Shown piece by piece: positions 21,864 to 23,428 of a DNA stretch of 64,000 bases. Position 1 is the stretch's first letter. Each line of letters starts with the position of its first letter. The DNA lies in NCBI GenBank assembly GCA_045597865.1, contig JAZLKX010000001.1, forward strand, positions 56,796 through 120,795, given 5' to 3'. The notes beneath the pieces are model-generated. The model did not search any database, was not told where the DNA came from, and worked only from the letters and a program-made list of their open reading frames with translations. The position numbers and the translations under genes are program-made. The stretch comes from Bacilli bacterium (GTDB lineage Bacteria > Bacillota_I > Bacilli_A > RFN20 > CAG-826).

Positions 21864-23309
21864 ATGGCAAATAATTTTAATAAAAAAGCTGTTTCCAAAA
21901 TAGAGCTATCGGATGATGAAATTATAAAATTAAAAGGCAAAAAAGTTATGATGCCTTTAAAAACCAAATATGGTGATTTTTGGGATGGAAATTTTTCTCG
22001 TTATGAGCACACAATGATTGTAGTTTCTATCAGTGAACGAATTATTAAAACACTAGGTTTAATTAACATTGATAAAGAAATAGTGCGATCGATTGCTAAA
22101 TTTCACGACATTGGTCATTGCCCGTTTGGACATGCTGGTGAAGAATGTTTAAATTCTCTAATTTCTGAAGAATTATTTGAATATCGAGATGAATTCTTTA
22201 GTGGATATAAGCATAATTTATTATCTTCTAAATTATTATTAGATAAAATTAATCCGTTATCTCCACATTGGAAGATTATTGACGGCATTACTAAACACTG
22301 CACAACCATGCCTAAAAATTTCAATATTGATCGTGTTCAAAAGAACAATTTATTAAAATTGAATTACATATTTAGAGATGATTTAAAAAACAAAAATTTA
22401 TTTATACCTAGTGATTCATGGAAACACTATATTTCTAATTTTAATTTTTCTTGTTGTTCGTGTTGTAAAAACAAGATTGTATACTATTCATCAAAATTTA
22501 ATTATAGTTTAAATTCCTTAAATTTATATTTGTGTAGAAAAACTTGTAAAAATGTAGTTTGTTCTAAACTTTTTAATGATGTTGATTTAAATGTAAGTAG
22601 ATATTTGCTTGTTCCAGAACCGCTATCATTAGAAGGCTCAATTGTTAAAGCTGCTGATGAAATTGCTTGTTTATCCTATGATTATTTTCTTTATTTTGCA
22701 TATATGAAATATAATAAGATGAATGAAAAAAGTAACATTTGCATTTCAAGAATTGAAAATTCAATTAATCAATTATTCTCATATTCACTTAGTGTTGGCA
22801 ATTTTAAAGGAATTAGCGTTCTAAATAGTTTAAATAAACTTGTTTCAGATCCAAACAAAAATAATTGTAACGATTTGATTGAGAATTTAATTTCTTGTTT
22901 AGAATTATCAAAAAAAGGTAAAAGAGGTTGTGACAGTTTGCTGACATTCGATTCCGATAATCAGCATTTATTCAATAGCATCAAAAATACAATTTATTCT
23001 TTAATTCATAATGATTTTTATATTTTGAACGACAATCAAATTGGTGCAGAACTAATTCGAAGATATTTTTATTATTTGTGCAAGAAACCCAGTAGGTTTT
23101 GCAAAGCTATCGGAAAGTCTAAATTTAATAAAATTTTCGGAACCTTAAAAACTGGTTGTAATATCAAAACATTTTCAAGATTTAGGAAAACAGATTTTGA
23201 GCCTAAACTTATGAATGTGTATAGAAGGGAAGTTGCTTTTTATATTGCTACATTAACTGAGGACGAACTTGTTAAAAAAAGTAAAAAGTGCTTGTTTTTT
23301 CGAAAGTAA
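21864..23309 (+). CDS. HD-domain dNTP triphosphohydrolase (dGTPase-like) with Cys-rich insertion, copy 1
   Basis: SRYEHT, HDIGHCPFGHAGE, KHN, KH, LEG...ADEIA; ATG 21864 preferred over TTG 21849. Confidence 0.85.
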   Translation: MANNFNKKAVSKIELSDDEIIKLKGKKVMMPLKTKYGDFWDGNFSRYEHTMIVVSISERIIKTLGLINIDKEIVRSIAKFHDIGHCPFGHAGEECLNSLISEELFEYRDEFFSGYKHNLLSSKLLLDKINPLSPHWKIIDGITKHCTTMPKNFNIDRVQKNNLLKLNYIFRDDLKNKNLFIPSDSWKHYISNFNFSCCSCCKNKIVYYSSKFNYSLNSLNLYLCRKTCKNVVCSKLFNDVDLNVSRYLLVPEPLSLEGSIVKAADEIACLSYDYFLYFAYMKYNKMNEKSNICISRIENSINQLFSYSLSVGNFKGISVLNSLNKLVSDPNKNNCNDLIENLISCLELSKKGKRGCDSLLTFDSDNQHLFNSIKNTIYSLIHNDFYILNDNQIGAELIRRYFYYLCKKPSRFCKAIGKSKFNKIFGTLKTGCNIKTFSRFRKTDFEPKLMNVYRREVAFYIATLTEDELVKKSKKCLFFRK

Positions 23310-23320
23310 ATTGTTATATT
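23292..23320 (+). promoter_or_regulatory. Sigma-70-type promoter overlapping the dNTPase stop codon
   Basis: TTGTTT-17 bp-TATATT with an extended TG. Confidence 0.6.
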
Positions 23321-23324
23321 ATAG

Positions 23325-23428
23325 ATGCTTATCGATGAGATAAGAAGGCAGAGTGCCGAAGATGATGCTGTGAGCATCGACCGTTGAAGTGCATAACTGA
23401 GACAAATAAGACCTTATGGTCTTTTTTA
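23325..23428 (+). ncRNA. Putative structured small RNA downstream of dNTPase copy 1
   Basis: GC-richer island; stems CTTATC/GATAAG, GGCA/TGCC, GATGCT/AGCATC; terminator AAGACC-TTAT-GGTCTT-T run. Confidence 0.6.

Follow-up and report, generated by a model that had tools for sequence, protein, structure and literature searches.

Genes for rare dGTPase-type HD proteins in a Bacilli bacterium and other gut bacteria are adjoined by putative small structured RNA units

The DNA analysed here, called the window below, is a stretch of 64,000 nt from a Bacilli bacterium (genome G000; assembly GCA_045597865.1, contig JAZLKX010000001.1, positions 56,796 to 120,795 of the forward strand). It carries two genes for dGTPase-type HD proteins, designated deoxynucleoside triphosphatase (dNTPase) 1 and dNTPase 2, and each gene is followed by a short hairpin-rich unit with a promoter-like site at the stop codon and an intrinsic terminator at the end. 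Small RNA-like units adjoin the enzyme gene also in 5/5 other loci with readable flanks (7/7 when the window is counted). What is established is the anatomy of the gene and unit, the fact that they are inherited together, and, for one RNA type, a conserved structure. We tentatively read the pair as an enzyme-plus-RNA module in which the RNA may restrain or tune the dNTPase.

Two dNTPase genes and their units in the window

The two loci have the following features:

21864..23309, + strand: dNTPase 1, clade A member of the Cys-insert dGTPase-like HD family, 481 aa (open reading frame (ORF), Pfam HD, PADLOC dGTPase, AlphaFold2)
23292..23320, + strand: promoter-like site of unit 1, with the -35 still inside the coding sequence near its end and the -10 after a spacer of 17 nt (sequence, geometry table, genome-wide pattern frequency)
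23325..23405, + strand: putative RNA core of unit 1, three short hairpins and an unpaired tail of roughly 25 nt (fold z -2.66)
23408..23432, + strand: intrinsic terminator common to dNTPase 1 and unit 1, hairpin 23408-23423 and T run (terminator scan)
58463..60010, - strand: dNTPase 2, clade B member of the same Cys-insert family, 515 aa (ORF, Pfam HD, PADLOC dGTPase, 20 full-length relatives)
58433..58461, - strand: promoter-like site of unit 2, with the -35 beginning 2 nt past the stop codon (sequence, geometry table)
58336..58428, - strand: putative RNA core of unit 2, multi-hairpin (fold z -2.10)
58306..58335, - strand: two-way terminator of dNTPase 2 and unit 2, hairpin 58333-58316 and T run, which also ends the convergent gene 57904-58299 downstream of unit 2

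The -35 hexamer of unit 1 is located at 23292-23297 and is followed by 17 nt, the -10 hexamer at 23315-23320, 4 nt, and the predicted start at 23325. Unit 2 repeats this arrangement on the other strand, with the -35 at 58461-58456, 17 nt, the -10 at 58438-58433, 4 nt, and the start at 58428. The -10 hexamers of both units are identical, as are their four-letter starts. The cores are 81-93 nt long and rich in hairpins, and with the terminators included the fold z-scores are -3.33 for unit 1 and -2.59 for unit 2. Terminator-like sites number three per region, while 0.3 and 0.5 are expected. None was found by the terminator scan between either dNTPase stop codon and the unit's own terminator, so each unit should belong to the mRNA of its dNTPase. 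Both units are present in the genome of the window in one copy each, with no duplicate. The first-pass annotation of this DNA had described the same architecture twice, at 21864-23428 and at 58312-60010, as a dNTPase gene, a promoter of identical geometry at the stop codon, and a hairpin core closed by an intrinsic terminator, and all these elements were found again at both places.

A rare family of dGTPase-type HD proteins

The ORF of dNTPase 1 opens at 21849 or 21864, and its database twin P0001 begins with the ATG at 21864 and has 481 aa. dNTPase 1 and dNTPase 2 are 27% identical across 501 aligned columns (E 1e-32). As judged by sequence, they are members of one rare family and, within it, of two different clades, A and B, which agrees with the earlier description of one unusual subfamily and adds a division to it. 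The family is small, with 14 full-length relatives of dNTPase 1 and 20 of dNTPase 2 among 5.8 billion clustered proteins.

HD is the sole Pfam domain in both proteins (E 2.2e-10 and 5.1e-8), and the PADLOC dGTPase model spans most of dNTPase 1 (E 5.5e-20) and of dNTPase 2 (E 3.7e-19). None of the NCBIfam dGTPase models reaches its cut-off for either protein, and all stay far below; the two proteins score 53 and 60 bits with TIGR01353 (cut-off 152) and 46 and 40 bits with NF041026 (cut-off 400). The HD metal and catalytic motifs are present, as the His, His-Asp, Gly-His..Pro..Gly-His..Glu, and later Asp-Glu columns are invariant in alignments A2 (15 rows) and A3 (19 rows, dNTPase 2 clade). The AlphaFold2 model of dNTPase 1, computed from the 15-row alignment, has a pLDDT of 76 and a pTM of 0.84. 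The top matches listed by Foldseek for this model are dGTPases or deoxynucleoside triphosphate (dNTP) triphosphohydrolases, with probability 1.0 and TM of about 0.45-0.53. Among solved structures, the anti-phage dGTPase 9p8w from Shewanella is the best match (E 1.2e-7); E. coli Dgt was matched as well, and the CloA structure 9p8s is at rank 50. The assignment of both proteins to dGTPase-type HD enzymes, with predicted dNTP hydrolysis, is supported.

The Cys-rich insertion that had been pointed out in both proteins is confirmed by the alignments. Cys 197 and Cys 224 of dNTPase 1 are nearly invariant in A2, while C191, C207, and C214 are invariant and C205 nearly so in the dNTPase 2 clade (A3). 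The insert covers residues 197-237 of dNTPase 1 and is modelled by AlphaFold2 with low confidence.

Both clade-B genes (at 60010-60025, - strand, in the window, and upstream of 2922, - strand, in the relative's locus L182 described below) show a consensus -10 hexamer only 6 nt ahead of the ATG. As a Shine-Dalgarno sequence is missing too, they seem to give leaderless mRNAs. The Shine-Dalgarno sequence is lacking also in dNTPase 1, where a hairpin at 21835-21857 stands 8 nt before the ATG.

Units at the loci of relatives

Five other loci with complete flanks were obtained: L004, L005, and L006 from a scan of species genomes, L084 from metagenome contigs (with duplicate L085), and L182 from whole-genome searches. 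A sixth locus, L167, ends at a contig edge. Because the scans of genomes and metagenomes relied on clade A peptide patterns alone, they possibly missed clade B loci. No further full-length gene was found in the order, family, and genus samples or in the family of G537. A relative in G151 is cut off where its contig stops, and the missing 3' part was not traced; a match in G110 was rejected as another HD protein, interrupted by N.

The flanks of these homologs were checked for the unit, and in 5/5 loci it was present, with three RNA sequence types and two layouts. Genome G225 supplied both L004 (clade A) and L182 (clade B), which show the downstream-sense layout of the window. In them, the -35 is located 13-18 nt after the stop codon and is followed by a 16 nt spacer, the -10, 4 nt, the core, and then the only terminator. 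The fold z-scores of their cores are -2.22 and -2.95, respectively. Genomes G000 and G225, in which a clade-A gene has a downstream-sense unit, both hold also a clade-B gene, 35 kb apart in G000 and on different contigs in G225.

Loci L005, L006, and L084 represent one clade-A lineage, in which the stop codon is immediately followed by a terminator. The gene is preceded by a strong promoter with extended -10, an RNA of roughly 115 nt with four hairpins and its own terminator, and then comes the ribosome-binding site with the start codon. Only a few bases separate this upstream terminator from the ribosome-binding site, and they hold no promoter; the gene should thus depend on read-through. Downstream, on the opposite strand, there is a second RNA copy which lacks the first hairpin and ends at a two-way terminator; as this copy is convergent, the genes seem to be flanked by inverted repeats of 42-54 nt.

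These inverted repeats could also be read as DNA sites, that is, ends of mobile cassettes or recombination sites, instead of RNA genes. The sporadic distribution, the variable neighbours, and the integrase adjoining L004 are in line with this explanation. Among the five longest of the 23-42 pairs at each of the window's two genes, L004, and L182, however, no such inverted repeat is present; the repeats contain a -10 hexamer and end in terminators, and G-U pairs together with compensatory changes fit selection at the RNA level. We therefore regard DNA sites as quite improbable.

Common geometry of the units

In 7/7 sense units from five lineages the order is a TTG-type -35, a spacer of 16-17 nt, the -10, 4 nt, and a start with N-pyrimidine-G-C. 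L004 and L182 are an independent test of the geometry derived from the window, and both show it. In the genome of the window, the pattern occurs 51 times per 3.48 million positions (0.0009 per 60 nt), and a terminator follows 60-150 nt beyond it in 3/50 instances with enough flank, namely unit 1, unit 2, and a tRNA-Gly gene, but these frequencies are not clean probabilities, since the pattern was defined after the instances had been seen. The third case, the only other one in the genome, is:

L213:3432-3505 (contig C57 of G000), - strand: stand-alone tRNA-Gly gene with unit-like promoter-to-terminator geometry

On account of the shared geometry, the units are taken to be putative small stable RNA genes that share one promoter design.

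A start codon stands 4 nt after the -10 hexamer in 6/7 sense units, which would suit small leaderless peptides encoded by the units, an alternative raised in the first-pass annotation. The frames from this start have 20 codons in unit 1, 13 in unit 2, 13 in L182, 2 in L004, and 2 in the L005 type. Since the frames are not conserved over these five lineages, the peptide sequences are unlike each other, and L084 has ACG at the start position, this alternative was rejected, and we give it hardly any credence.

Structure of the RNA types

A covariance model built from the leaders of L005, L006, and L084 finds the convergent copies with E 4e-9 to 1.5e-7. In the model-fitted alignment A11 (7 copies, 31 pairs), pairing is possible in 99% of cells, compared with 36-49% when the partners are slid. 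Both sides have changed in 8/31 pairs, including three in helix 4, and 0/500 shuffles reach the covariation score. All these figures are inflated by the fit to the model and by how closely the copies are related. The compensatory changes that distinguish convergent copies from leaders are nonetheless real, and the structure of the leader-type (L005-type) RNA is conserved and supported by covariation.

Between the types, local alignment among L004, L182, unit 1, and unit 2 gave z of 0.5-2.1, except for unit 1 with unit 2 at z 4.6, a value which probably stems from the AT-rich stretches of promoter and T run. Unit 1 aligned with L005 and with L084 at z 3.6-3.7, and the L005 group is also significant internally. 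MAFFT with RNAalifold found no common fold beyond the terminators, either for unit 1 with L004 or for unit 2 with L182. The leader covariance model R1 misses unit 1, unit 2, and the units of L004 and L182 even at E<=10. A weak R1 match at L004:2780-2874 (E 0.0017) was discounted, as it resembles the terminator of another transcript. A motif common to unit 1 and L004, a short hairpin with purine flanks, was dropped as unspecific, with 3 places in the genome and 4 for the control. By eye, unit 1, L004, and the L005 leader open alike, with a first hairpin, a few purines, and a short GC hairpin.

Comparison with known RNA families and systems of control

With Rfam 15, no match at gathering score was found in the window. 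The best E values in the unit regions, 2.5 and 0.57, belong to unrelated snoRNA-type models far below threshold, and there are no matches at E<=0.1 in L004, L005, L006, and L182. No tRNA or tmRNA was predicted within the units by ARAGORN. The first-pass annotation had not recognised the module as a described one, and its units have no counterpart in Rfam.

Antisense control of type I was examined by the duplex energy of four units with their own start region in comparison with 400 others, and 43-97% of these pair equally well or better. The 7-nt complement of the word preceding the terminators has 7 occurrences in the window against 7.5 expected. Antisense control is unlikely. For a tandem-repeat antitoxin, Tandem Repeats Finder gives only trivial repeats with <2.5 copies and a period of 8-15 nt, one of them partly in unit 1 (23319-23337) and none in unit 2. 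An endoribonuclease of ToxN/AbiQ type was rejected, as the modelled fold of dNTPase 1 is that of an HD dGTPase. The layout of a riboswitch or attenuator, with a terminator directly upstream of the gene, is absent in the window, where both units are downstream, and is found only in L005, L006, and L084. Sequence features expected of a small RNA (sRNA) derived from a 3' untranslated region (UTR) are present in the window, namely a promoter-like site where the coding sequence ends and a predicted terminator common with the mRNA.

Mobility, distribution, and neighbouring genes

The enzyme and RNA appear to move horizontally as a block, and the neighbours differ at every locus. dNTPase 1 and unit 1 are adjoined by a type II methylase, a GHKL-type restriction enzyme, and an HNH protein:

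23688-28400: defence-type cluster after unit 1, with an N6-adenine type II methylase at 23688-25070 and an HNH, PtuB-like ORF at 27792-28400
25057-27240: 727-aa GHKL ATPase resembling the restriction enzymes BbrUII and HgiDII, part of the same cluster

The neighbours of dNTPase 2 are GIY-YIG-like and NUMOD-like ORFs, that of L004 is an integrase, those of L182 are an Abi_2 fragment and an SF1 helicase, and those of L005 and L006 are a sigma-factor-like protein and YfhO.

Gut run X1 contains a contig with a dNTPase 1 gene of 97.7% identity (31 differences per 1354 nt). A second X1 contig spans unit 1 and the terminator together with the gene's final 108 nt; beyond 23453 it no longer matches the window. 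Among its differences listed, one is coding (23265), two are in the terminator, and none is in unit 1, where about 1.9 would be expected, so that even a true zero would be within chance. The defence cluster 23688-28400 is not linked to the dNTPase in this relative.

Full-length genes of the family were found in 4/401 genomes of the order sample, 2/37 of the genus, and 1/49 of the family of the L005 genome. In 7 phage records and 20 plasmid records, no full-length relative (at least 80% of the query covered) was found, and scans of viral contigs gave no family gene. One leader-type copy is solitary:

L190:1500-1616 (genome G073), - strand: solo copy of the L005-type leader RNA, 95% identical, with -10 hexamer and terminator kept, between a Hint-domain gene and rimP-nusA

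A search of G073 gave no enzyme of the family at E<=1e-20. This copy may be a relic, given its poor -35 hexamer, or a sign of another role of the RNA. It would fit the explanation that the units are ordinary sRNAs or stable RNA genes with other cellular targets, which merely travel on the islands of the enzyme, and so would the lack of complementarity between the units and the region of the enzyme's translation start. On the other hand, the units adjoin the enzyme gene in 7/7 loci despite differing neighbours, and no further copy of unit 1 or unit 2 exists in the window's genome, which makes such sRNAs an improbable explanation, though a better one than DNA sites.

Apart from the units, a repeat of roughly 100 nt was seen in the window directly after the stop codons of four + strand genes, at 21456-21557, 33436-33534 and 33566-33599, 34375-34419, and 36620-36721. 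It consists of a conserved box, a terminator hairpin with compensatory stem changes between copies, and a second small hairpin, and has no match in Rfam. In gut runs X1 and X3, contigs cover 21400-21630 to a very high depth.

Proposed mechanism

We propose a two-part mobile module, in which a divergent dGTPase-type dNTP triphosphohydrolase would be paired with a dedicated structured RNA of about 95-120 nt. The window RNA would be made twice, as the 3' end of the enzyme mRNA and from its own promoter at the stop codon. By this co-transcription together with its own promoter, it would always be at least as abundant as the enzyme mRNA. In the L005 type, an excess of the RNA would come from the terminator before the gene and from the second copy. 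An RNA in excess of the enzyme mRNA would follow the logic of an antidote. We infer that the RNA is expressed, that it acts as a negative regulator, most likely by binding the enzyme and holding it inactive, and that the module serves in defence: when transcription is shut off or RNA degraded in the course of phage infection, the enzyme would be freed and would deplete dNTPs. Binding and restraint by RNA are favoured because enzymes of this superfamily need restraint, as in Clover, and bind single-stranded nucleic acid, as SAMHD1 and Dgt do.

The first-pass annotation had suggested an RNA-regulated dNTPase module for defence or toxin-antitoxin function. The dGTPase-type family and the recurrent tie to the unit speak for it, while the hallmarks of type III systems, a repeat array and an endoribonuclease, are absent. 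A wider claim, that these modules form a new class of RNA-controlled nucleotide depletion, in which an RNA of at least three sequence types binds the Cys-insert dGTPase and keeps it inactive, and the loss of the RNA on infection unleashes depletion, seems possible but doubtful to us.

The most serious competitor is an element acting only in cis, without contact to the protein, which would be a structured 3' UTR for stability or termination in the window and a 5' attenuator or riboswitch-like leader in the L005 type. The unit is necessarily in the dNTPase mRNA, as a terminator between them is lacking, the gene of L005, L006, and L084 depends on read-through of the leader terminator, and the stop-codon promoters are weak in isolation; all three points agree with action in cis. 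The convergent second copy in L005, L006, and L084 is, however, on the other strand and cannot belong to the enzyme mRNA. Furthermore, a 3' UTR would not need the promoter geometry that is kept over five lineages, the solo copy in G073 retains its -10 hexamer and terminator, and the leader sequence, as read, shows no alternative antiterminator pairing. We consider a purely cis element possible, if on balance unlikely. A trans-acting partner fits the evidence better, as the unit occurs in three positions and orientations (downstream sense, upstream sense, downstream convergent), has its own promoter, and is present in two copies in the L005 type.

Several results weigh against the reading as an enzyme-plus-RNA module. 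The case from the window alone is weak. Each of its promoters is weak on its own, with 8/12 consensus matches at a scanner threshold of 9, so that neither was listed, and promoter-like sites occur at chance level in the two regions (14 against 18.2±4.3 expected and 25 against 21.2±5.2). The units had been described as GC-richer and multi-hairpin; their cores fold better than shuffles, but their GC content of 45.7% (unit 1) and 41.3% (unit 2), compared with 35.3% in the genome, is a modest excess which 14% and 22% of intergenic 80-nt windows reach, respectively. As to the short words said to be shared, both cores have 8 hexamers in common against 2.62±1.92 in dinucleotide shuffles, yet the signal is only marginally above chance, since 20/1000 shuffles reach 8 and the words are not collinear. 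A distance of 90-130 nt from stop codon to terminator is not rare in the same genome (39 of the 434 ORFs whose terminator is no more than 300 nt away). Between the RNA bodies of the three unit types (window plus G225 clade A; clade B; L005 type), no homology was detected by local alignment, apart from the pairs of unit 1 named above, or by consensus folding or covariance model. The sample of five independent lineages is small, the geometry frequencies and the lack of listed differences in unit 1 of X1 add little for the reasons given above, and G073 has a leader-type copy with no family enzyme found.

Relation to known systems and significance

The window proteins resemble anti-phage dGTPases (PADLOC dGTPase, NF041026, 9p8w) in the HD fold, the dGTPase-type motifs, and the defence-type gene surroundings, which are restriction-modification and HNH genes beside dNTPase 1 and Abi_2 and helicase genes beside L182. 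They differ in being about 135 residues longer, including the Cys-rich insert, and in scoring far below the NCBIfam cut-offs. The known anti-phage dGTPases (original preprint 10.1101/2021.04.26.441389) are described as single genes, whereas each window enzyme has an adjacent RNA-like unit. A full-text literature search, which covered journals other than subscription ones, found no description of an RNA partner of a dGTPase.

In Clover, the dGTPase CloA is reported to need an inhibitory signal to avoid toxicity, and CloB makes an inhibitory nucleotide. The likeness is that of a defensive dGTPase checked by a dedicated adjacent partner, which in our case is a proposed one. The Clover partner is described as an enzyme making a small molecule, while the proposed partner in the window is an RNA, and no CloB-like gene is present beside the two dNTPase genes of the window. 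For SAMHD1, binding of single-stranded RNA and dNTP hydrolysis are described as mutually exclusive, and E. coli Dgt is described as solved with DNA effectors (4x9e). SAMHD1 with single-stranded RNA and Dgt with single-stranded DNA are thus reported members of the same superfamily that bind single-stranded nucleic acid, but their ligands are not dedicated, genetically linked RNAs.

The type III toxin-antitoxin systems include ToxIN, CptIN, and TenpIN, and the order of ToxIN is promoter, RNA, terminator, and protein gene. In common with them, the module has an RNA gene and a gene for a potentially toxic protein in one small unit, and the order in L005, L006, and L084 equals that of ToxIN. Unlike in type III systems, the window-type RNA is not a tandem-repeat array and is located downstream of the gene, and the protein has an HD dGTPase fold. 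The sRNAs derived from 3' UTRs that have their own promoter act by base pairing on other mRNAs. The window shares with them a promoter-like site that overlaps or adjoins the 3' end of the gene, as well as the terminator common to mRNA and RNA, and differs in that no pairing with its own mRNA was found and that the unit follows the enzyme family across genomes.

Immune enzymes that deplete nucleotides are toxic to their own cell. To our knowledge, the silencing of such enzymes is understood only for a few, as for example by the inhibitory nucleotide of Clover. If the proposed module is real, it would amount to a toxin-antitoxin or defence system akin to type III, with an HD dNTPase toxin in place of an endoribonuclease, and a linked RNA restraining a dGTPase would be a new principle of control for this class of effectors. 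It would extend the biology of RNA antitoxins past endoribonuclease toxins and find a parallel in human SAMHD1, which binds RNA. Comprising one gene and one RNA, the module measures only about 1.6 kb and is directly testable in laboratory strains. Even if the RNA acts only in cis, its leader type is new as a structured RNA, since covariation supports it and Rfam has no entry for it.

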